Positions 4,436-64,000 of a DNA stretch of 64,000 bases are shown piece by piece (within the stretch, counting starts at the first letter, position 1; each line of letters starts with the position of its first letter). The DNA comes from a virus. The notes below the pieces were generated by a model. That model made no database searches. It was not told where the DNA came from and saw nothing but the letters and a program-made list of their open reading frames with translations. The translations under genes were made by a program, and so were the position numbers. The stretch spans positions 26,319-90,318 of the IMG/VR virus record IMGVR_UViG_3300020034_000005. One strand, written 5' to 3'.

Positions 4436-4697
4436 ACTCCCCGCCCGCGCGTCCGACGGCGGTCCCGCGGGCGGGGTCAACCGCTTCACCGGTGGCCTAG
4501 ACCTCTGCTGTTGATGAAGGCTCTGGCCAGCGGTTTATACGGTGCGCGATCAGTTCACACCCCCTGAGTGCCGTGTGCATATATCTGCATGTAGGCGCCC
4601 TTGCGCTTACCGTCACAACAAGGAATGGTCAAGGCAAAGAAGCTGACTCCCCAGTCAGCTCATGCACCCCGGACCCCGGTGCGCGCGTCCATGCATG

Positions 4698-4925
4698 TCA
4701 GCTCAGGAGGTCCTTCACGTGCACCCGCAGCGCACGCGCGATCCGCAACAAGTGGCTGGTCTTCGACTCCCCGCCGTACTCGATGCGCTGAATCGTGCTG
4801 CGGTCCAACTCCGACAGCTCGGCAAGCCGCTCCTGGGTCATGTCGAGGTACAGCCGGCGCACGCGCACGCGGTCGCCGATGGCCCGTCGGGCATCGAGGA
4901 TCCACTGCGGCTGGTCGGCTGGCAT
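4698..4925 (-). CDS. XRE-family HTH regulator
   Basis: MTQERLAELSELDRSTIQRIEYG. Confidence 0.85.
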   Translation of the reverse strand: MPADQPQWILDARRAIGDRVRVRRLYLDMTQERLAELSELDRSTIQRIEYGGESKTSHLLRIARALRVHVKDLLS

Positions 4926-5099
4926 CAGACAAACGCTCGACCGCAGATGATCTTATGTCAGCAGCAGATTTGCGGCATCTTTCGATCATGAAGAGCTGAC
5001 CGGGCGCCCCAGACCCCGCCGCCCGGTCTCACCACCCATACCGCTCCAGCCCTGCGGCGCTCTGGCATATGCCGCAGGGCTGGGGCTAGTGTCCATAAA

Positions 5100-5115
5100 T
5101 CGAACGTGCGTTCAC
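5100..5115. promoter_or_regulatory. LexA box-like site
   Basis: TCGAACGTGCGTTCAC (GAAC-N4-GTTC core) in an intergenic region. Confidence 0.5.
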
Positions 5116-5249
5116 TCGAAAGGATGAACAACCACGTGGGAACCGCATCCGTTGGACAGGGAAATTTGGTAGCGCTCTGGCTCAGGCCGGCGCGCCCACA
5201 CGGGACCGCCGCTCCTGCCGCGGCGGTCCACGCCGACGGAGAGACACCG

Positions 5250-5480
5250 ATGACCCCCGACGCAATCCTCGCCCTCTACCCCTGGACGACCGGGTCGTGC
5301 TTCCGCTGCAGCGAGGACGACGTGTTCGTCACGCACATCGACGACATCGTCACCCCCTCCGGCGACGTCTACCGGCTGAGCGCCTGCGGCAGCTGCGTCA
5401 TCATCCTCGAGACCGAGCGCTGGCGGCACGCCCTCCGCAAGGGAGAGGTGTACGAGCCGGGCCTACTCGGCGCATCGTAG
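5250..5480 (+). CDS. Hypothetical Zn-binding protein
   Basis: CFRC...CGSC; RBS GGAG. Confidence 0.55.
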   Translation: MTPDAILALYPWTTGSCFRCSEDDVFVTHIDDIVTPSGDVYRLSACGSCVIILETERWRHALRKGEVYEPGLLGAS

Positions 5481-5558
5481 AGACACCCCGCCCATCACGC
5501 CGCCCCGCAGACCGCGAGGCGGCTTTCCGCTGGAGACACCCTGGCGGAGGGCCCGTTT

Positions 5559-5838
5559 CTGGGGAGCGCCTGGGGAGAATCTGGGGGTGGGCGGCACCTG
5601 GGGAGAGGTGGATCGGAACCCAACGACCCACCATCGGAACTCAACGCAACGCATCGGAACAGTCAAAAGGGCAGTTCAGCACCATCCCGCAAAACGATTG
5701 AGGGGAACCCGCAGGCCCAGGATGCACGGCTAACAAAACCCGGCGTACAGGCCGACTCGTCCGCTGTCTGAACCTCTGACCTGGGAACTCTTGCCGAGTT
5801 CCTAGATCAACTGGGGTGCTGGGGAGAATCTGGGGAGA
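5559..5838. other. attP: arm-type repeats flanking a core matching the rnpB 3' end (5733..5763)
   Basis: CTGGGG(AG) repeats at 5559, 5570, 5581, 5598 and 5811, 5819, 5830; ATCGGAAC at 5612, 5633, 5653; core ACAAAACCCGGCGTACAGGCCGACTCGTCCG; abuts integrase stop. Confidence 0.8.
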
Positions 5839-5845
5839 TCCATTT

Positions 5846-7183
5846 CTAAATGGAGTCCTCGGGCGCCTCATCCGCTCCACCGGCGTCATCCGAGCCGACG
5901 TCGGGGGTGAGCCACCGGCCGAGCGCCGTCAGCCCCATTGTCCCAGACGTCGGCAAGAAGTGGGCGTAGGTCCGCAACGTGAACGCCGGATCTCCATGGC
6001 CGAGCCACGACGCCAGCTGAGTGATCGTCTCACCGGCCGCCAGCACGATCGACGAGAACGTATGGCGGGTGACGTGAAACCCGTCCTCCCGCGGCATGGC
6101 CCACTTCTTGCGCAGCGCGCGCTTGCCCTTCGCCGTCACGCTCTCCACGACCGTCGGCTCGGGCAGCACACCCGCCCGGCCGAGCGCCGGCTTCCACTGC
6201 TTCTCATCGAAGGTCGACCGGTTGATCGCGCCCCCGGCGCCGCCGTTGATCCTGGAGGTGACCACAAGAAGACGTACTGTCCGCATCGGCCGGCTCGTCC
6301 ACGCGATGTTCGGCCGGTCGGGGTCAACCCAGCGCAGCGTCACCTCGACCGTGGGGTACGAGTTCGCGTACTCCTTCACCGCCGCGGCGAGCTCTACAGG
6401 GCACGGTGCGTCACGCAGCTTCCCCCGCTTCGGCGGGGCGAACGCCAGCTTCCCCCCGACCTTCACGATCTGCCGACGGACATGGATGATCTCACCGTCG
6501 ATGTCGTCGGGGGAGAAGCCGAAGCATTCGCCCTGACGGAGGCCGGCCGCCACGCCCAGGTCCAGCAGGATCCGGTAACGCGCATCGAGCCCAGCTCGCA
6601 CAGCGGCCACAGTCTCTGGCGACCAGGCCTTTGCCGTCGACGGTGGTGACGCAGGCGGCGACAAGTCCTCGTCGCGGAAAGGGTTCTCCGCAATCCGCTT
6701 CGCCTTGTGCGCGGCCTGGAGAATCGACGAGAAGTACCGCCACGTGGTGCGCACCGTGTTGACGTCGACATCCTCCTCGACCCGGATCAACCAACCCTTG
6801 ATCTCGTCCGAGCCGATGCGGTTCAGAGGCATGCTGCCCATGTGCGGCAGGATGTGCTTGAACACTCGCGGGCGCATCGACTCCTTGGTCGTCGGAGGCA
6901 CCCGCAGGTTCGGCCACCACGTTTTGCGCACGTACTCGTCGAGGGTGATGTTGCCGTCCCGCGGGTCGTAGAACGTGCCGCGGGTCGAGTCGGTGGCGGA
7001 CGCCTTCAACCAGGCCTTGGCCGGGACTTCCTTGGTGAACGAACGGTCGCGCACTCCGGGGATCCCGGCGACCCGCCAGCGTTTGCCCTTGCCGTGCCGG
7101 TCCGTGGGAACCCGGGTCGGCTTGCCCGTCTCAGGGTCTGCGGGGCCCTTCTTGTACCAGCGGTCCTCGATATACCCGGCCAT
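5846..7183 (-). CDS. int: Tyrosine integrase
   Basis: GLRQGE (R), HVTRH (HxxR), LGH and TYAH (Y) catalytic motifs; SAM-like core domain. Confidence 0.95.
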   Translation of the reverse strand: MAGYIEDRWYKKGPADPETGKPTRVPTDRHGKGKRWRVAGIPGVRDRSFTKEVPAKAWLKASATDSTRGTFYDPRDGNITLDEYVRKTWWPNLRVPPTTKESMRPRVFKHILPHMGSMPLNRIGSDEIKGWLIRVEEDVDVNTVRTTWRYFSSILQAAHKAKRIAENPFRDEDLSPPASPPSTAKAWSPETVAAVRAGLDARYRILLDLGVAAGLRQGECFGFSPDDIDGEIIHVRRQIVKVGGKLAFAPPKRGKLRDAPCPVELAAAVKEYANSYPTVEVTLRWVDPDRPNIAWTSRPMRTVRLLVVTSRINGGAGGAINRSTFDEKQWKPALGRAGVLPEPTVVESVTAKGKRALRKKWAMPREDGFHVTRHTFSSIVLAAGETITQLASWLGHGDPAFTLRTYAHFLPTSGTMGLTALGRWLTPDVGSDDAGGADEAPEDSI

Positions 7184-7415
7184 GACGCGCCCCCTTGAAC
7201 GCCGGTGAGCGCGCCGTTATGACCTCGCCACGCCACAGTTGGAACCACTGTCCCCCGGCGAGGAGCTGCGTGACGGCCGAATTGAGAGCCGCTACCCCTT
7301 CCGGGAGGAACAGTCCGCCGGCGAGCTCGTAGTTCACCCACCCCCGGCCTTCCTTGATACGGACGGGCGCGTCCTCGGAAAGGCTGGCCGACAACTCGAA
7401 GTTGATATTGAGCAC
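7131..7415 (-). CDS. Hypothetical protein between repressor and integrase
   Basis: GAGGGG RBS then GTG. Confidence 0.6.
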   Translation of the reverse strand: MLNINFELSASLSEDAPVRIKEGRGWVNYELAGGLFLPEGVAALNSAVTQLLAGGQWFQLWRGEVITARSPAFKGARHGRVYRGPLVQEGPRRP

Positions 7416-7570
7416 GATCTACCCCCTCTGGGGCAATCAGGGAGGTGGGGGACCCCTGTGGTGAAAGTGTCCGGACCCGGAAACATAACCCGACTTGGGT
7501 CGGTCTTCAACGGTCTGTTATGGATCCAGTTCAGGCATCAAGTAGAACCGCAGGCCAGCGACTTGTATGA

Positions 7571-8029
7571 CTATTCGGCGTCCCGTTTTGCGCGCTCGTC
7601 GGCCTCGATCATCGCCTTCCAGCGGCGGATCTCACCCTTCTCCATGCCCGCGAGGTGGGCGACGATGACGCGCACGTCCTCGTCGTAGCCGGCGAGCTCA
7701 GTGGCCTTGTAGTTCAGAAACTGGATCGCGGCGGCGCGCTGCACCACGGTGAGCGGCCTCTGGAGGCCGAAGGAGATGGCTTCCAGTCGCTCAGGAGTGG
7801 GGGCGGTGGCAATGGAGTTCGTGGCCATCTTCTGGAAATACGGCTTGGACAGCGGGACGCCGGCTGCTGCCGAGCGGTCGGCCATCTGCCGGTAGGAGAC
7901 GCCGCGCCCGTCGTCGTTGATCTCGCGGATCATCTGGCTCAGGGCGTCGCGGTCCATGTCCCTGACAAGGTTGTCGGGAAGACCGGACGTGGTGTCGTCG
8001 CGGGTGGGGGTGGGGGCAGGTGCCTCCAT
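7571..8029 (-). CDS. Immunity repressor (XRE-like HTH); start uncertain
   Basis: SYRQMADRS...LSKPYFQKM...PTPERLEAIS; divergent from cro-like gene. Confidence 0.75.
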   Translation of the reverse strand: MEAPAPTPTRDDTTSGLPDNLVRDMDRDALSQMIREINDDGRGVSYRQMADRSAAAGVPLSKPYFQKMATNSIATAPTPERLEAISFGLQRPLTVVQRAAAIQFLNYKATELAGYDEDVRVIVAHLAGMEKGEIRRWKAMIEADERAKRDAE

Positions 8030-8137
8030 GCCGCTGTCTCCTCGGGTCTCATTCACACCGACTGTCTCTCGTGTAGTCCGCGCTGACTCTACAAATGGCA
8101 GGCCAGGCCGTACAACCATCGACGCACAAAGACGAAT

Positions 8138-8210
8138 CGTCTACAGGTTGATGGTAACTAAGCGGTCGGTTCAGGGAAACTTCACTTCCGGCCGTTCGGA
8201 TCTGTAGACG
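8138..8210. promoter_or_regulatory. Lysis/lysogeny switch region with inverted CGTCTACAG/CTGTAGACG sites
   Basis: 9-bp inverted pair at 8138 and 8202 in an AT-richer divergent intergenic region. Confidence 0.45.
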
Positions 8211-8271
8211 CAGCGGGTTTGATCTGATTCACTGTTCCCATCGAGAGCCGCACCGTTCCGATGGAGATCCT

Positions 8272-8592
8272 TTGAACGTCCGCTATAACCTCCGCGCCCC
8301 ACACATCCTGAGATGGGTGATGGATCACCCCGGGAGAGGGGTGCCCTACAGCACGCGAGAGCTCGCCAAGGAGATCGGACTCAGCTACCACAGCCTGATC
8401 GGACACCTCCTCACCGGCAAGCTCACCGACTGCCCCATCGAAGTCGCCCACCGCATCGCGGAGGTCACCGGCGTCGCCGTACTGGTGCTTTTCGCGCCCC
8501 CAGCGTCTCCAGAACAGAACGAATCGGATCAAGACCGCAGTCGAAAGTCAGATGCGCTGCCCCCGCCCCCACCCCCAGGAGTACCCCAGTGA
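8272..8592 (+). CDS. Cro-like HTH protein
   Basis: YSTRELAKEIGLSYHSLIGHLLTG. Confidence 0.75.
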   Translation: MNVRYNLRAPHILRWVMDHPGRGVPYSTRELAKEIGLSYHSLIGHLLTGKLTDCPIEVAHRIAEVTGVAVLVLFAPPASPEQNESDQDRSRKSDALPPPPPPGVPQ

Positions 8593-8924
8593 CGAAGACC
8601 AGGAAGTTGGCCCAGCAGAAGCCCCCGCCCGGGGTTGTCTGGATCTACGACTACACGGACCCCGAGACCGGTGAAGTACTCCTCCCCGGAATCGCGACCC
8701 GTCTGGGCATCTCCCCGAACACCTTCCGGAAGTGGCGGATGGCCGACAAAGGGCCGAAGTCGTTCCTTCTCGGCAAGCCCGTCGCCGCGTTCATCGAGGA
8801 CATAGACGCCTGGATCGCAGAGCAGGGCGGCCGGGAGTACGCGGCGGCAGTAGAGGCCCGCGCCGAGGGCCGGCCGCCGGAGCCCCGCCGCTCCACCGCC
8901 AAGCCGCTCGTACCTGCCGCCTGA
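8589..8924 (+). CDS. Excisionase-like (AlpA/MerR-type HTH) protein
   Basis: IATRLGISPNTFRKWRMADKGPKSF...EDIDAWI; GTGA overlap. Confidence 0.75.
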   Translation: MTKTRKLAQQKPPPGVVWIYDYTDPETGEVLLPGIATRLGISPNTFRKWRMADKGPKSFLLGKPVAAFIEDIDAWIAEQGGREYAAAVEARAEGRPPEPRRSTAKPLVPAA

Positions 8925-9022
8925 CGCGGCAAACAGCCCCAACCACCGGTGGTCAGAGACCGGCAGCCGGGGCCTAGAGGACTCCCTCACCTGCAACTAC
9001 CTGCAAGCGAAAGAAGACCGTC

Positions 9023-12828: not shown

Positions 12829-13343
12829 GCACCGTAGACACCGTGAAGGCCGTCGCCCGGCACCGGAAGCTGTCGTGGTTGGGCCTCGCCGCACTCGCCG
12901 GCGTGCAGGGCAAGGAGCTGAACACACTCCGGCCGCGGGTCGCCGAACTGGAGGCGGCGCTGGACAACGCGGCGTTCCGCCTCGACGGGGCCCTGCTCCT
13001 CGCCGGGGGGCTCCGCCTGCAGCTCGACGAAGCCCACGACATCCGCGACGACATCAACGCCAAGGCCGTCCGCTACGACGAAGCCGAACACCGTGCCACC
13101 GCAGCCGAGCAGCAGCTCGCCGCTAAGGACGAAGAACTGATCGCGCTCCGCCAGTTCAAGGCCAACGTCCAGTCCGTCGACGTCACCCAGCTCGGCCACC
13201 GCGACATCGACCCCGGCGACGCGGTCACCGTGCCCGTCCCGATCGTCAAGACGCTCGCCGAGGCGTTCGGCCAGGGCCGCGCCAGCACCGACCCCGCACG
13301 CACCACCTGGGGCCGCCGCAACGAGCAGGCAGGGGTGGCGTAG
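12825..13343 (+). CDS. Coiled-coil hypothetical protein
   Basis: GTGA overlap. Confidence 0.6.
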   Translation: MSTVDTVKAVARHRKLSWLGLAALAGVQGKELNTLRPRVAELEAALDNAAFRLDGALLLAGGLRLQLDEAHDIRDDINAKAVRYDEAEHRATAAEQQLAAKDEELIALRQFKANVQSVDVTQLGHRDIDPGDAVTVPVPIVKTLAEAFGQGRASTDPARTTWGRRNEQAGVA

Positions 13344-14758
13344 TGGACGCCTACTGGGAGGACACGGACGCCGGGATCACCCTGTACCTCGGCGACTGCC
13401 TCACCGTGCTGCCCACCCTGGCCGACGCGTCCGTGGACTCCATCGTCACCGACCCGCCCTACGGGTTGACCGAGTTGGCAGCCGCGACGGTTCTGTCAGC
13501 GATAGCCGCATGGATGGCAGGCGACCGGACGCACGTGCCGGATGGGCGCGGGTTCATGGGCCGCGAGTGGGATCGTTTCGTGCCACCGCCTGGTGTGTGG
13601 GACGAGTGCCTACGGGTCCTGAAGCCGGGCGGTCACGTGCTGGCGTTCGCTGGTGCCCGCACCGTGGACCTGATGACGCTGTCGATCCGCATCGCCGGGT
13701 TCGAGATCCGCGACAGCATCGACTGGATCTACGGCAGTGGCTTCCCGAAATCACACGATGTTTCCAAGGCCATCGACAAGGCGGCCGGGGCGCAGCGCGA
13801 GGTAGTAGGGGCAAGCGCGCATAGCGCTAACCGGTCGGCCGGTTCCTGGCAGGCGGACGGCCGGGCCCCTACGAGAATGGCGAAAGGCAACGAGGGGGAA
13901 CGCCAGATCACCGCCCCGGCCACCGCCGATGCGGCCCGCTGGGACGGGTGGGGCACGGCACTCAAGCCCGCCCACGAGCCCATCGTTCTCGCCCGTAGGC
14001 CGCTCTCCGGGACCGTCGTCGTGAACGTCCTTCAGCACGGCACCGGGGCCCTCAACATCGACGACTGTCGGACCGTCGCCGGGCAGGACTACCGGCAGAA
14101 GTGCGCGTCCGTGGTGGGCATCGACAGTCCCCGCAACGGCGACACCGGCGGCGAACGGACCGGGGCCCGGGAGGACTCCGCGCACGTTGCGGGCCGTTGG
14201 CCGACGAACGTGATCCTCACCCACCCGCCGCTCCTCGATGACGACGGGCAGGTCGTGGGAGACGCGTGCGCAGACGGGTGCGTACCCGGCTGCCCCGTCG
14301 CGGAGATGGACGCGCAGAGCGGGGGCAGCACCAGCGCAGCAAAGGGCAAGGCCGGGGGCGCCTTCAAGTCCACGAGCCTGTACGCGCAGGACGCGACCTC
14401 GCGCGGCATGGCCCGGACCGAACGCCCGACACACGGCGACAAGGGCGGCGCATCCCGCTTCTTCACCGTCTTCCGCTACGAGGCGAAGGCCCCGGCCTCA
14501 GAGCGTCCCCGGCTGGCGGACGGCACCGCGCACACCACGGTCAAACCGCTCGCCCTGATGCGGTGGCTGATCCGGCTCGTCACCCCGCCCGGCGGAGCCG
14601 TCCTCGATCCGTTCGTCGGCTCCGGCACCACGCTGGAAGCGGCCCTCATCGAAGGGTTCCCCGCCATCGGTATCGAGCGCGAAGCCGACCACGCCGAACT
14701 GTGCGTGACCCGGCTCGCCAAGCCCATCACGTCGACCCTCTTCGGCGCCACCCCCTGA
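13343..14758 (+). CDS. DNA amino-methyltransferase (N6A/N4C, beta class)
   Basis: TDPPY motif IV, H.TVKP, DPFVGSGTT motif I. Confidence 0.92.
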   Translation: MDAYWEDTDAGITLYLGDCLTVLPTLADASVDSIVTDPPYGLTELAAATVLSAIAAWMAGDRTHVPDGRGFMGREWDRFVPPPGVWDECLRVLKPGGHVLAFAGARTVDLMTLSIRIAGFEIRDSIDWIYGSGFPKSHDVSKAIDKAAGAQREVVGASAHSANRSAGSWQADGRAPTRMAKGNEGERQITAPATADAARWDGWGTALKPAHEPIVLARRPLSGTVVVNVLQHGTGALNIDDCRTVAGQDYRQKCASVVGIDSPRNGDTGGERTGAREDSAHVAGRWPTNVILTHPPLLDDDGQVVGDACADGCVPGCPVAEMDAQSGGSTSAAKGKAGGAFKSTSLYAQDATSRGMARTERPTHGDKGGASRFFTVFRYEAKAPASERPRLADGTAHTTVKPLALMRWLIRLVTPPGGAVLDPFVGSGTTLEAALIEGFPAIGIEREADHAELCVTRLAKPITSTLFGATP

Positions 14759-20344: not shown

Positions 20345-21318
20345 CCACCGCAACCAACGAACCGCCCGCACACGGGACCTACGCCCGCGGCAACGGCGCC
20401 CCCGGCTACCGACCGCCGTGCGACTGCCCGCCCTGCCGCAAAGCCCGGCTGCGGACCAAGAAGCACAACAAGGCCATGCGAGACCTCGGCAAGGGCGCCC
20501 GCGTACCGGCAGACCAGGCCCGCACCCGACTCCAAGCCCTCTGCCAGACCATGACGTGGGACCAGATCGCCGCGGCCACCGGCTGCGAACCCGGCAACCT
20601 CCGCCTGATCAGCTCGGGCAGGCGGGCCGCGATCAACCGCAGCACCCAGAACAAGATCCTCGCCGTGGCACCGCAGCCCCCCAGCGCGCGCGGCAAATAC
20701 GTCGACGCCACCGGAAGCCGCCGCCGACTCCAAGCCCTCCGCGCACTCGGCTACTCCGCCCGCCACATCGCCGACATCGGCGGGTTCGCCACCAGCGAGA
20801 GCCGCGTACACACCATCTGCGCCACCCGCCAGCCCACCGTCCGCCACCACCTGGCCGCGAAGATCACCGCCGCCTACACCGTCCTCGCCGGAACACTCCC
20901 GCCGCCCAGCGCCGGAACCACCATCGCCCGCAACTACGCCGCGAAACAGGGCTGGGCACCGCCCGGGGCCTGGGACAACATCGACGACCCGGCCGCCGTC
21001 CCCGACTCAACAGGGCACTGCGGCACCGACCGAGGCTGGTGGACCCACCGCAATACACACCTCCCCGTCTGCCAGCGGTGCGAGGCCGCCCACCAGGAGT
21101 GGAAGCGGGACCACCAGCACCTGGCCAGGACCGAGTTCATGAAGGCCCTCACGGCCGCCCGCTCCGCCGCCTCCCACCGCGGCGCCGACATTGCCGACGA
21201 CGGCCGCGAACTCATCCGCCACGGCTGCGACTACGACACCGCCGCCGCCCGCATCGGCGTCACCCGCCAACACCTCCAACAAGAACTCCAACGCCACCCC
21301 GAAGGAGCCGCAGCATGA
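20341..21318 (+). CDS. Multi-HTH / Zn-finger DNA-binding protein
   Basis: CxCxxC, TWDQIAAATG, GYSARHIA, AAARIGVT HTH-like segments. Confidence 0.7.
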   Translation: MTTATNEPPAHGTYARGNGAPGYRPPCDCPPCRKARLRTKKHNKAMRDLGKGARVPADQARTRLQALCQTMTWDQIAAATGCEPGNLRLISSGRRAAINRSTQNKILAVAPQPPSARGKYVDATGSRRRLQALRALGYSARHIADIGGFATSESRVHTICATRQPTVRHHLAAKITAAYTVLAGTLPPPSAGTTIARNYAAKQGWAPPGAWDNIDDPAAVPDSTGHCGTDRGWWTHRNTHLPVCQRCEAAHQEWKRDHQHLARTEFMKALTAARSAASHRGADIADDGRELIRHGCDYDTAAARIGVTRQHLQQELQRHPEGAAA

Positions 21319-23003
21319 GCTACCGCAACGACGACGACGCGCTCACCGTCATGGACTGGTTCTGCGGGGCCGGCGGGTCTTCCCAGGGCATGCACTCGGT
21401 GCCCGGGGTGCGGGTGGAGCGGGCCGCGAACCACTGGGCCAAGGCCATCGAGTCGCACGCAGCGAACTTCCCCCTCGTCGACCACTACCGCGGCGACATC
21501 CGCGAGGCCCCGGTCGAGCGGTGGCCCGTCACCGACATCTTCTGGGCCAGCCCCGAGTGCCCGCAGTGGTCGAACGCCCGCGGCAAGAAGCGGGACTTCG
21601 CGAACACCCTGCAGGGCGACCTGTTCGGCGACGGCGCCCCCTCCGAAGAGGTCGAACGCTCCCGCGCCCTCATGGAGGAAGTCCCCATGTACCTGCGCGG
21701 GGTGCAGCAGCGCGGCGGACTCGTCAAGGCGGGCGTCGTCGAGAACGTCGTCGACGTCCGGGCCTGGGACCAGTGGGACCGGTGGATCGGCGAGATCAAG
21801 AAGCTCGGGTACGAGACCCGCACCATCGCCCTGAACTCCATGCACGCCGACCCGCGCACCGTCCACCAAGCACCCCAGTCCCGCGACCGCCTGTACGTCG
21901 CCTACTGGCACCAGTCCCTGGGCCGCACCCCCGACTGGAACAAGTGGCTCCGCCCGCGCGCCTGGTGCACCGGCTGCCAGGAATGGGTGCGCGCCGTCCA
22001 GGTCTTCAAGGACCCCACCCGCGACATGGGCCGCTACCGCCAGCAGTACGTCTACCGCTGCCCTGAGGTGAAGTGCCGCAACCAGATCGTCGAACCCTCC
22101 ACCCTGCCCGCCGCCGTCGCCATCGACTGGAACCTCCCCGGCCAGCGCATCGGGGACAGGGCCAAACCGCTCGCCGACAAGACCCTCGCCCGCATCCAGG
22201 CCGGCCTCGACAAGTTCGCCCGCCCCATGGTCGTCCCCGCTGGAGGGACCTGGCGCAACGACCCGGTGCCGCTCGACCAGCCCATGCCGACCCGCACCAC
22301 CCGGGAGAACGACGGCCTCGCCATACCGCCCTTGCTCATCCCTGTTGAAGGACGGGACGGGAAGGAGCCCGCCTCCGCGAACAACCCGCTCCGCACGCAG
22401 ACCGCCCGCAACGAAACCGGCCTGGCCTGGCTGCCATTCATGGTCACCATGCGCGGCGGCGGCGACCAGCTCCGCGGTAAGTCCATCGGTGAGGCGCTCG
22501 GCACGGTCTCCGCGAACGGCAACCACCACGGGCTCGTCGCCCCGAACGTTCCCGCCATGGTCATGCGGAACAACGGCTCCAAAGGCGACGGCGGCGAACA
22601 CTGCACCAGCGCCGCCGACTACCTCCGCACCATGACGACAGCCGGCCACCAGTCCCTCATCACCTGGGAGCACCTCCTCGTCCCCTACTACGGCACCGGA
22701 ACCGCGCGCCCCGTCGCCGACCCGATCGGCACCCTGTCCACCCGCGACCGGTACGCCCTCGTCAAGGGCGACGTCGACATCAACGACGTGCTCTTCCGGA
22801 TGCTGGAGCCCCACGAGATCGGCCGGGCCATGAGCTTCGCCGACGAGTACGTGGTCCTCGGCAACAAGCGGGAGAAAGTCCGCCAGTACGGCAACGCCGT
22901 CACCCCGCCCGCCGCCGAAGTCATCGTCGCCGCCCTCGTCGAAGCCATCACCGGCGAAGAGATGTCCCGGCACGCGGCGCCCGAGCTGGCAGCCGCCGCA
23001 TGA
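21315..23003 (+). CDS. C5-cytosine DNA methyltransferase
   Basis: FCGAGG, SPEC, ENV, PQSRDR, GNAV motifs. Confidence 0.92.
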   Translation: MSYRNDDDALTVMDWFCGAGGSSQGMHSVPGVRVERAANHWAKAIESHAANFPLVDHYRGDIREAPVERWPVTDIFWASPECPQWSNARGKKRDFANTLQGDLFGDGAPSEEVERSRALMEEVPMYLRGVQQRGGLVKAGVVENVVDVRAWDQWDRWIGEIKKLGYETRTIALNSMHADPRTVHQAPQSRDRLYVAYWHQSLGRTPDWNKWLRPRAWCTGCQEWVRAVQVFKDPTRDMGRYRQQYVYRCPEVKCRNQIVEPSTLPAAVAIDWNLPGQRIGDRAKPLADKTLARIQAGLDKFARPMVVPAGGTWRNDPVPLDQPMPTRTTRENDGLAIPPLLIPVEGRDGKEPASANNPLRTQTARNETGLAWLPFMVTMRGGGDQLRGKSIGEALGTVSANGNHHGLVAPNVPAMVMRNNGSKGDGGEHCTSAADYLRTMTTAGHQSLITWEHLLVPYYGTGTARPVADPIGTLSTRDRYALVKGDVDINDVLFRMLEPHEIGRAMSFADEYVVLGNKREKVRQYGNAVTPPAAEVIVAALVEAITGEEMSRHAAPELAAAA

Positions 23004-42235: not shown

Positions 42236-44425
42236 GTGGCCACCGACCAGAAGCCCACCCCCGAGCCGACCAAGCAGGAAACCACCTGGCGGGACAAGCT
42301 GCGCGGCCGCGGCGCCGACCAGGCAGCGAAAGCGCGCGCCGCCCTCGCCGTACAGCGCGACCACGCCAAAGCCCGCACCGGGGACTGGCTGAAGGGCGCC
42401 GACCTCACCGACGAGGACCTTCAGCAGATGGTGACAGAGAAGGCCCGGGAACACCGCGCTCAGCGGGTGGCGGAAGCCGAGCAGCAGGTCGCCATCCTGG
42501 AGAACCGTCTCGACATGGCCCGGTCCATGGGGAAACGCGGCAAGGACATGGTCTCGCAGCTCAAGATGCAACTCGTTGTTGCCGAGGACGCCCTGGACGC
42601 GGTCGCCAGCGAGCCGGACCCGCCCCCCACCCAGCGTCAGCTCAACTCGGCCCGGCTGAAGAAGCGCGCCACCCGGGCCGGCTACCTGGTCGGCGGCGGG
42701 CTCCTGGCCCTGAAAGGTGCGGCCACCGACCCGACGCTACTCGGCTTCCTGGGCGTCGCGGGCGGCTACGGCTGGTACCTGGTGTCGCGCCCTTTCACCG
42801 ACGGCCAGACCCCTGCACCTGCACCGAGCACCCCGCAGGGACTGGCCACCCCGCAGAGTCCGGCACCTTCGATCAACCTGACCAAGCCCGAACCGGCGCC
42901 CGGGGTGAGGGAGTTCAACGCCCCACCGCCGCCCGCGCTCACAGTTAGCCAGTTGGACGAAGCCCTCCGCAGTGTCGGCATGGTGCGACCAGGCGAGAAG
43001 ATCCAGATCCTGGCCGTGCCGCAGCGAGAGAAGGACGGCAACACTACCGTCGTTTTCGATCTGCCCGCAGGCCAGAAAGTCGCCAACCTCCAGCTGAAGA
43101 TCGAGGAGTTCGCCGGGGCGCTCGGCCGCGACTCCACCATGGTCGACATCGAGAAGGCGGGCAGTGCGGTCCGCACCAGCCTGTGGATCACCGACGAGGA
43201 CCCGTTCGCGAACACCCGCCCCTCACCGCTGATCACGCACCCGACGCAGATCGACGCGTTCAGAGACGGCATCCCGGTCGGGTGGGGGAAGCGCGGGAAC
43301 ACCATCAAGCTCCCCATCAGCAGCTCGAACATCGTGATCGGCGGCGGTGCCCGCTCCGGCAAGGGCGTCGGCGCCTCGAACCTCGCCGTCGGCGCCACCT
43401 TCGACCCGCGCATCAACCCCCGGATCGTCGCGGGCAAGCAGAACGCCGAATGGGACGCCTACGCCCGTGCCGGAATCGCCTGCACGTACTTCAAGCCGGA
43501 CCCGGCCCGGCTTCTGGCACTTCTCGATGCCGAGATCGCGGACAAGGACCGGCGCGAGGCGGCGCTGGGCAGGCTCGGCAAGAGCAAGCTGGTCGGCCCC
43601 GCGATCGAGCAACTCGGAGGCATCGAGCTCATCATCATCGACGAGCTCGCCACATACACACGCCCCGGAAAACCGCTCCGGGACGAGATCCTGGAACGCC
43701 TCGTACTCCTCGCGTCCGTAGCACCGGCCGCCGGGATCCTCCTGGTCGTCCTCACCCAGTACCCGGGCGTCGACATCTTTCCGACCGAGCTGGCCGTGAA
43801 CTTCACCACGAAGTGGGCGATGCGCGTCGACACGGCGACGCAGTCCAACGCGATCCTCGGCGCCGGTTCGTCCGGCATGGGCCGCGATGCATCCAAGTTC
43901 GACCCTCCCCGGCCGGGCTTGGGCTGGCTCGTCAACCCCTTCGTCGGGGTCACCGACCGGGCTCGCAGCTTCGACATTGACGAGGATGAGCGCGGCGAAA
44001 TCAGCATGCTGCAGGAGAAGGCCGCGAAGATCCGTGAAGCTGCGGGGCGTCTCGCCGGGCAGTGGGACGACCCGATCGAGCGACACCTCCTCAACGCAAC
44101 CGGACTGTCCTCGGCGGCCGGCGGACCGAAGCGCGACGGCATCCCGGGACGGAACGTTCTGAATCACACGCCGGACCAGAAGTTCCAGATCGGCTGCTGC
44201 CGTCAGGCACTTGAGGCCATGGATCAGCTGGGTCGTGATGTGGCGCAGCTCGACGAGATGGCTCAGATCATCGGTGCGATCCAGAGCGACGAGCTTGGGA
44301 GGGCGCTTCGTTCCGCAGGCGCCGGCGGAACCGTGAAGATCACGGTTCCCGGCCGGGAGGGGCAGGTTCGCGGCTACCAGCGGGCCGACGTCAAGGACGC
44401 GCTGGACTTGCTGCTCGGCTCCTGA
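42236..44425 (+). CDS. traB: TraB-like FtsK/SpoIIIE DNA translocase
   Basis: Two TMs, alpha domain, Walker A GGARSGKG, Walker B IIIDE, LTQYP, C-terminal wHTH ending GYQRAD. Confidence 0.8.
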   Translation: MATDQKPTPEPTKQETTWRDKLRGRGADQAAKARAALAVQRDHAKARTGDWLKGADLTDEDLQQMVTEKAREHRAQRVAEAEQQVAILENRLDMARSMGKRGKDMVSQLKMQLVVAEDALDAVASEPDPPPTQRQLNSARLKKRATRAGYLVGGGLLALKGAATDPTLLGFLGVAGGYGWYLVSRPFTDGQTPAPAPSTPQGLATPQSPAPSINLTKPEPAPGVREFNAPPPPALTVSQLDEALRSVGMVRPGEKIQILAVPQREKDGNTTVVFDLPAGQKVANLQLKIEEFAGALGRDSTMVDIEKAGSAVRTSLWITDEDPFANTRPSPLITHPTQIDAFRDGIPVGWGKRGNTIKLPISSSNIVIGGGARSGKGVGASNLAVGATFDPRINPRIVAGKQNAEWDAYARAGIACTYFKPDPARLLALLDAEIADKDRREAALGRLGKSKLVGPAIEQLGGIELIIIDELATYTRPGKPLRDEILERLVLLASVAPAAGILLVVLTQYPGVDIFPTELAVNFTTKWAMRVDTATQSNAILGAGSSGMGRDASKFDPPRPGLGWLVNPFVGVTDRARSFDIDEDERGEISMLQEKAAKIREAAGRLAGQWDDPIERHLLNATGLSSAAGGPKRDGIPGRNVLNHTPDQKFQIGCCRQALEAMDQLGRDVAQLDEMAQIIGAIQSDELGRALRSAGAGGTVKITVPGREGQVRGYQRADVKDALDLLLGS

Positions 44426-63677: not shown

Positions 63678-63795
63678 CTTGAGGTCGACAGGCTAGGCGT
63701 GCCGCCCCTCACCCCCGAGGGGCAGGGCGTGGCGGCCGGGTAGGGTAGTGGGTCAGGTGCATGGTCATGGTCGTCGATGGTCATCTGCGTTAGGT

Positions 63796-63981
63796 GATCA
63801 ACGTTCGTGATCGTGAAGGAAGATCGAAGATCGATGATGAAGATCGATTCGAGTTGATCGAACAGTGATCGACCGAGCTTACGGATCTTGGGCAGAGATC
63901 AACACGGGAAGATCAACGATCATAAATCGGTGATCCAAACCGCAACTCTCCAGACCTGGGGGGAGATCCCCAAGGGTGATC
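63796..63981. repeat. GATC cluster (14 copies), candidate packaging site
   Basis: GATC at 63796, 63809, 63822, 63829, 63842, 63856, 63867, 63884, 63897, 63911, 63918, 63932, 63965, 63978; non-coding and lower GC. Confidence 0.7.
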
Positions 63982-64000
63982 TTCGGATATCGGACCCGTA

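Follow-up and report, generated by a model that had tools for sequence, protein, structure and literature searches.

Certain phages, plasmids and islands that carry tyrosine integrases use the 3' part of tRNA or tmRNA genes for integration, examples being Streptomyces phage VWB, pSAM2 and mycobacteriophage L5, and sites of this type have reportedly been surveyed by Reiter in 1989 and by Williams in 2002. The locus described here lies in a 64,000-nucleotide stretch of viral DNA (the window, meaning the whole stretch analysed) and resembles these systems in several respects: the integrase gene (int) adjoins the attP site, the latter holds a copy of a gene 3' end in the orientation that would rebuild the gene, arm-type repeats stand on both sides of the core, and the prophage of a relative is bounded by direct repeats with an intact gene at one end. 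It differs from them in its predicted target, rnpB, the gene of the RNase P ribozyme, and in the nature of the copied piece, which is not an acceptor/T arm but what we take to be a conserved segment of the catalytic core together with the closing strand of helix P1. As the target is neither a tRNA nor a tmRNA gene, the rnpB system would work like the stable-RNA-gene class but represent a variant of it.

A stable non-coding RNA gene of another kind is used by the Enterococcus phage phiEf11, which integrates into ffs, the 4.5S RNA gene, through a 27-nt identical core located 74 nt from the end of the integrase gene (PMC12540744). The 2025 paper on ffs calls its site novel and, in the portions of its text available to us, names only tRNA/tmRNA and csRNA as RNA targets (PMC12540744). 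Going by these portions, the window phage is like phiEf11 in that its predicted target, a stable non-coding RNA gene, is neither tRNA nor tmRNA and is matched by a short core near the end of int, but the gene, the host phylum and the integrase lineage are all different. No report of integration into rnpB was found in the literature searched, to which subscription journals and the supplements of island surveys could add, and the available portions of PMC2516327, PMC6582537, PMC2864759, PMC12540744, PMC4256840, PMC5462765, PMC2386152, PMC3937233 and PMC2705793 do not report rnpB as an attB. The comparisons presented below make it very likely that positions 5733-5767 of the window are the attP core of a temperate siphovirus of about 90 kb that integrates into the 3' end of rnpB.

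The core and its counterpart in rnpB

The attP core (5733-5767, plus strand) begins with the sequence ACAAAACCCGGCGTACAGGCCGACTCGTCCG at 5733-5763, the letters being identical to those quoted in the initial annotation, and these reproduce the final 31 nt of rnpB, the 3' strand of helix P1 included. An Rfam search at the gathering score gave no RNase P RNA gene in the 64-kb window, which indicates that the remainder of rnpB is missing from it. In a permissive Rfam scan of the region 5500-5900, only 5731-5763 can be aligned credibly, to the approximately 33 final positions of RF00010 (12.2 bits, E 0.086); with a cut-off of 100 bits for a full-length ribozyme, the segment is a fragment and not a gene. 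The structure line of the same scan places the 3' strand of P1 on CAGGCCGACUCG, and the conserved ‘ACAGAA-CCGGC’ core segment, presumably CR-V and the 3' strand of P4, also falls within the copy. A further, upstream piece of the permissive alignment is marked as non-canonical and was rejected as spurious.

A pattern of 25 nt taken from 5737-5761, with one N, was searched in a collection of species-representative genomes. At least 120 genome stretches were matched, mostly of Streptomyces, and Kitasatospora, Streptacidiphilus, Blastococcus, Modestobacter, Cellulosimicrobium and Longispora are also found among the listed matches. The body of rnpB lies directly upstream in 109 of the 122 listed matches (120 loci; BLAST to an Rfam-verified rnpB). 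Three of the 122 are too near the locus edge to be judged, and ten have at least 2 kb of upstream sequence yet lack an rnpB body by BLAST; nine of these ten are also RF00010-negative by Rfam, with the exception of L140, in which rnpB is cut by the locus edge, the Rfam set having omitted L041. A full RF00010 match ending at the pattern is present in eight of the 18 loci run through Rfam, and in all eight the gene ends two bases past the pattern. The reversed pattern, used as a control, gave no match in the 20 genomes or records searched. Judged by these comparisons, the match of the core to rnpB is far beyond chance. The initial annotation had identified the core as the end of rnpB with the P1 3' strand in it, had stated that the rest of the gene is absent, and had set the target apart from the usual tRNA and tmRNA genes; all of this holds, the last point through the assignment of both the core and the genomic loci to RF00010, RNase P RNA, in the Rfam scans.

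The variable base of the pattern is C in 87 of the 122 listed matches, G in 34 and A in one, and the window carries G. The Streptomyces rnpB end given in the initial annotation corresponds to the commoner C variant. The four bases ahead of the pattern read ACAG in 115 of the 122 listed matches and ACAA, the form of the window, in only three, so that the A at 5736 is rare, a point that counts against the integration proposed here. The best match to the core among those listed is the rnpB of Streptacidiphilus carbonis, which is identical to the window over 5733-5767 (35 of 35 nt), and the identity block shared with other G-variant rnpB genes spans 5737-5764 (28 nt). Read on the minus strand, the core (5740-5755) forms a 5-bp hairpin followed by GTTTTGTT, a terminator-like arrangement downstream of int, and the rare A at 5736 makes the T run after this hairpin longer.

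A search of cultured phages for the core gave nothing beyond an 86% match over 36 nt and a chance match of 20 nt, and plasmids gave partial matches only. The former lies at MT836823.1:3960-3995, in an unannotated 8.6-kb phage contig from human faeces, and might be another copy of an rnpB end, belonging to a different host group.

The arms, the integrase and the surrounding genes

Exact copies of CTGGGGAGA occur four times in the 64-kb window, all of them beside the core (at 5570 and 5598 on the left, at 5819 and 5830 on the right), and a copy with one mismatch lies at 5559. As one-mismatch copies are not enriched window-wide (14 found versus 21.9 expected), the arm-repeat signal is the clustering of the exact copies. 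The left (P) arm (5559-5606, plus strand) contains CTGGGGAG(A/C) as a direct repeat in three copies (5559, 5570 and 5598), presumed to be arm-type binding sites of the integrase, and the right (P') arm (5819-5838, plus strand) two tandem CTGGGGAGA repeats abutting the stop codon of int, which is 83 bp from the core. Putative arm-type sites are thus repeated on either side of the core, as in an attP of the lambda type, and the core does lie between arm repeats and beside int, as the initial annotation had described it. Two further elements accompany the arms. Three ATCGGAAC repeats (5612-5660, plus strand; families D2 and D6), spaced at 20-21 bp, might be bound by an accessory or bending factor; they have no conserved counterpart in the arm of the AHA2 prophage described below. 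Just past the copy of the rnpB end an inverted repeat (I2, 5777-5809, no strand assigned) forms a stem-loop, the folding of 5764-5830 giving -27.5 kcal/mol (z -3.1). The hybrid rnpB, or int on the other strand, could use this hairpin for termination or processing.

The int gene (5846-7183, minus strand) is transcribed toward the core and encodes a tyrosine integrase of 445 aa, with matches to PF00589 (33.1 bits, cut-off 27.1) and, at residues 96-171, to the core-binding, SAM-like domain PF22022, Phage_int_M (28.1 bits, cut-off 27). In an alignment to Tn1549 Int, its GLR214-216, H370-VT-R373, GH395-396 and Y406 coincide with the catalytic motifs (R216 and H396 included), so that the residues of a tyrosine recombinase (R...HxxR...H/W...Y) are all present at the level of sequence; the beta-hairpin lysine was not located in this alignment. 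The solved structures nearest in sequence are those of Tn1549 Int (6EN0 and others) and HP1 integrase (1AIH), both distant (E 1e-5 to 7e-4), with which the window integrase shares the GLR, HxxRH, GH and Y motifs but from which the phage differs in target and type of element. Identity to integrases of cultured phages is at most 29%, the best being those of mu1/6 and VWB (25-29%), and no DNA match to positions 5000-9000 was found among cultured phages.

The window corresponds to positions 1-63,990, reversed, of contig G000:C338 (90,308 bp). Beyond the left end of the window this contig encodes a large terminase, a portal, a major head protein and a tape measure protein of 1,556 aa, which identify it as a phage of the siphovirus type, and the attP-int module separates the late genes from a long early region. 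At the far left of the lysogeny region is the gene of a Cro/CI-type HTH protein of 75 aa (4698-4925, minus strand; PF01381), and the last gene before the core is an ORF of 124 aa without a Pfam match (5106-5480, plus strand). On the other side of int, a 203-aa ORF (8313-8924, plus strand) gives a weak, sub-threshold match to HTH_17, of the excisionase type (E 0.002), and is a possible recombination directionality factor. A second tyrosine recombinase gene, encoding 338 aa (PF00589; PHROG ‘integrase’), is located about 7 kb from int on the minus strand (L154:575-1591, equivalent to G000:C338:64565-65581), approximately 0.6-1.6 kb to the left of window position 1. A copy 77% identical occupies the same relative place in the AHA2 prophage, and dimer resolution or recombination at a second site are possibilities for its function. 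The early region further includes two large DNA methyltransferase genes and an FtsK/SpoIIIE-like gene (13343-14758, 20418-23003 and 42236-44425). The window extends 10 bases beyond the contig, the end of which (approximately window 63700-64000) is rich in GATC and low in GC (56% versus 69%).

Integrated relatives and the lineages of the integrase

In the mechanism proposed for this locus, the adjacent tyrosine integrase would bind the CTGGGGAGA arm repeats and the core, and would recombine the core with the identical last approximately 30 nt of the host rnpB. The body of rnpB would then be joined to the phage-borne 3' end, with the int gene converging on it (attL), and the essential rnpB would stay whole because of this joining; the displaced original end would be left at the far side of the prophage (attR). 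We infer the window phage's own integration, the exact crossover point and the working of the hybrid ribozyme; the crossover point would be bounded by the identity blocks, that is, to 28 nt with most G-variant genes and to 35 nt with S. carbonis and within the AHA2 prophage.

An integrated relative is found in Streptomyces sp. AHA2. Its prophage is bounded by exact 35-bp direct repeats of the rnpB end, 61.6 kb apart, with the full rnpB (289.8 bits, Rfam) at the left repeat, so that the whole gene stands on one side of the element, and its integrase, 68.8% identical to that of the window, converges on rnpB from a distance of 120 bp. Homologues of 18 proteins of the window phage are located between the repeats, a tail protein (55% identical) among them, and the gene order is that of the window phage opened at the core: int and its neighbours are at the left end, the structural genes are in the middle, and the last genes before the right repeat (attR) are homologues of 4698-4925 (68% identical) and 5106-5480 (36%). 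The CTGGGGAGAATCTGGGGAG motif is present in both arms of this prophage, the left arm at attR included, and CTGGGGAG[AG]ATCTGGGGAGA is found beside the int stop in the attL arm. The copy of the gene 3' end next to int in the window has the orientation of the AHA2 attL, the one suited to rebuilding rnpB. This layout is the footprint that integration through the proposed rnpB site would be expected to leave.

The relatives of the window phage were extended by a set of 28 IMG/VR viral contigs encoding an int homologue (43-75% identity). In 14 of the 28 the rnpB end is located 88-206 nt past the int stop, in the geometry of the window. One of the contigs, the provirus L175 (int 63% identical), contains a full rnpB (278.6 bits) and represents the integrated attL form, attL alone being seen. 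The central proposal of the initial annotation, that the phage integrates into the ribozyme gene and restores its 3' end, is therefore supported by two integrated relatives, the syntenic AHA2 prophage and L175, in which a close int homologue (69% and 63% identical, respectively) stands beside a full rnpB. The checks that the initial annotation had named as able to refute its proposal, carried out in silico, gave results in its favour throughout. Ten of the 14 carriers have at least 2.7 kb of downstream flank without rnpB and are for this reason taken to be in the attP form; two of these attP-form contigs, when examined, proved to belong to records of 87.6 kb and 69.9 kb whose termini are direct repeats, the latter repeating its ends. 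In L183 the core is inverted relative to int. The motif CTGGGGAG[AG]ATCTGGGGAGA lies beside the int stop in ten of the 15 IMG/VR relatives compared and in variant form in three more, and is absent there in L175 and L185.

In seven of the 28 relatives (L176-L180, L182 and L187) the segment beside int is not the rnpB end but the last approximately 100 nt of a coding sequence. In S. massasporeus this segment corresponds to the 3' end of a gene for a family-11 rhamnogalacturonan lyase (PF21348; L191:1503-3050, minus strand), and the integrases of the carriers (60-63% identity) keep the same arm motif. The six other relatives are without an assigned core type, one of them having a flank of 81 nt only. 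In the integrase tree the window integrase belongs to a clade of 11 (support 100/99), ten of which have the rnpB core, the eleventh having too little flank to tell. The lyase-targeting integrases constitute a single clade (96/93) nested among rnpB-targeting lineages, an apparent target switch between an RNA gene and a protein gene, the direction of which is left unclaimed as the tree was midpoint-rooted for drawing only.

Host, alternative readings and consequences

The variable base of the core falls in helix P1. The C-variant hosts have CGAGCCGGGC as the P1 5' strand and GCCCGACTCG as the 3' strand, and the G-variant hosts CGAGCCGGCC and GGCCGACTCG, as paired by inspection; since C-variant genes begin with CGAGCCGGGC and G-variant genes with CGAGCCGGCC, the G/C difference in the phage-borne strand concerns one partner of a P1 base pair. 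In the AHA2 prophage the base is C, as in its C-variant host, and in the window phage it is G, and such tracking of the host P1 helix by the attP variant fits a selection for a working hybrid gene. The natural host of the window phage is probably a member of the Streptomycetaceae with a G-variant P1 helix (Streptacidiphilus, Kitasatospora or the S. hygroscopicus-like group), and the closest likely host seen would be Streptacidiphilus. The rnpB of S. carbonis looks like an empty attB, as this genome contains the core once and gave no close integrase homologue (none at E 1e-20). In Streptacidiphilus melanogenes the core is present three times and a distant int-like ORF converges on rnpB, and no close int homologue was found.

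The window DNA is present in soil-metagenome runs. In the two likely source runs, continuous contigs cross 4500-7500 and show no joint at the core; a third soil run yields small pieces of low depth, broken in many places, between 5747 and 5790 among them, breaks to which no meaning is attached; and a fourth, a separate soil metagenome from 2025, contains a relative about 90% alike, with one contig across 5065-5930 in the attP form. No lysogen of the window phage was found, the bin assembly and the contigs of the likely source runs holding the attP form only. As contigs cannot show rare integrated forms, the unbroken ones are not evidence against integration.

The contig is filed with a genome bin, and it might be supposed that the phage infects the organism of this bin and integrates into its divergent rnpB or elsewhere in it. 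This is very improbable, since the ‘host genome’ is itself a bin from a soil metagenome, in which membership is not evidence of a host, and the GC content of the contig (68.6%) departs from that of the bin (72.4%). Moreover, nine of the 31 bases of the core are different in the bin's own rnpB (C210:158138-158500, 304 bits), the P1 5' strand of which would be a poor partner for the end supplied by the phage. Elsewhere in the bin the core found no match, the longest exact run being 16 nt, and the assembly of the bin holds the attP region in one copy only, with no second. A match to the core is likewise absent from the other genomes of the genus (3) and family (137) of the bin; one family member, L033, gave a match of 22 of 23 nt, which was rejected as it is not in rnpB. 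The bin that holds the contig is thus probably not the host. Hardly to be credited at all is a similarity to rnpB due to chance, or to a scrap of host DNA captured without a role in integration: the local Rfam match is indeed weak when taken alone, but the segment recurs at a fixed place beside int in half of the IMG/VR relatives and is the very direct repeat that bounds the AHA2 prophage.

A somewhat less remote, although still improbable, reading holds that an ancestral target has left the rnpB-like segment as a relic and that the phage, no longer integrating there, is lytic, episomal or dependent on another site. It would account for the attP form being the only one seen for the window phage, and retargeting does occur in this integrase family, as the sister clade apparently targets a protein gene, at its 3' end. 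Against such a relic, however, stand the intact core, with its perfect match over 35 nt to a living rnpB, the intact arm repeats and catalytic residues, and the grouping of the window integrase with the carriers of the rnpB core rather than with the switched clade.

Integration into rnpB thus being the preferred reading, we incline, by a modest degree, to the broader view that rnpB is a third general stable-RNA docking class for tyrosine integrases of Actinomycetota, undescribed in print, with a chimeric ribozyme, a co-varying P1 helix and a use in vectors as its corollaries. If this is true, lysogens would run on a chimeric ribozyme in which the conserved 3' core segment and the closing strand of P1 are phage-encoded, so that part of the conserved core of the ribozyme would come from the prophage. 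The phage copy must then co-vary with the host P1 5' strand (G:C versus C:G), and the attP sequence would help to set the host range, the covariation of P1 providing a simple and testable link between the two. The rule that integrases use the 3' ends of stable RNA genes would then cover, in addition to tRNA and tmRNA genes, an essential gene present in single copy, that of the RNase P ribozyme. As the rnpB site is single-copy and nearly invariant across Streptomyces, with the C variant prevailing among the listed matches, int-attP pairs could be made into broad integration vectors, and a cassette of this kind could be widely usable in antibiotic-producing actinomycetes. A more general consequence is that being binned together with a genome does not make that genome the host of a phage contig.

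The rnpB site may also be used by other elements. Core copies were counted in 15 genomes, picked for showing fragments or variants, for which reason the count gives no prevalence; two or three copies are present in 12 of the 15. In eight of these 12, namely AHA2 and seven further genomes, two copies are on one contig, always in direct orientation and 4.7 to 187.6 kb apart. The two copies of S. massasporeus are 31.6 kb apart, and an integrase 49% identical to that of the window adjoins the second copy and is transcribed toward it, so that the gene geometry is reversed. In several genomes the core is present three times, and a profile search with the integrase family located a distant member approximately 1.9 kb from rnpB in Blastococcus jejuensis. 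In many Streptomyces a conserved hairpin and GAAAGTCCCTCGGAAGT-like motifs are present just downstream of rnpB, the attR flank of AHA2 being among these sites, and similar GAAAGTCCCTCGGAAGT-like motifs adjoin the 49% identical integrase of the S. massasporeus element (loci L159, L161 and L162), which suggests a second family of elements at the rnpB site and an occupancy in tandem.
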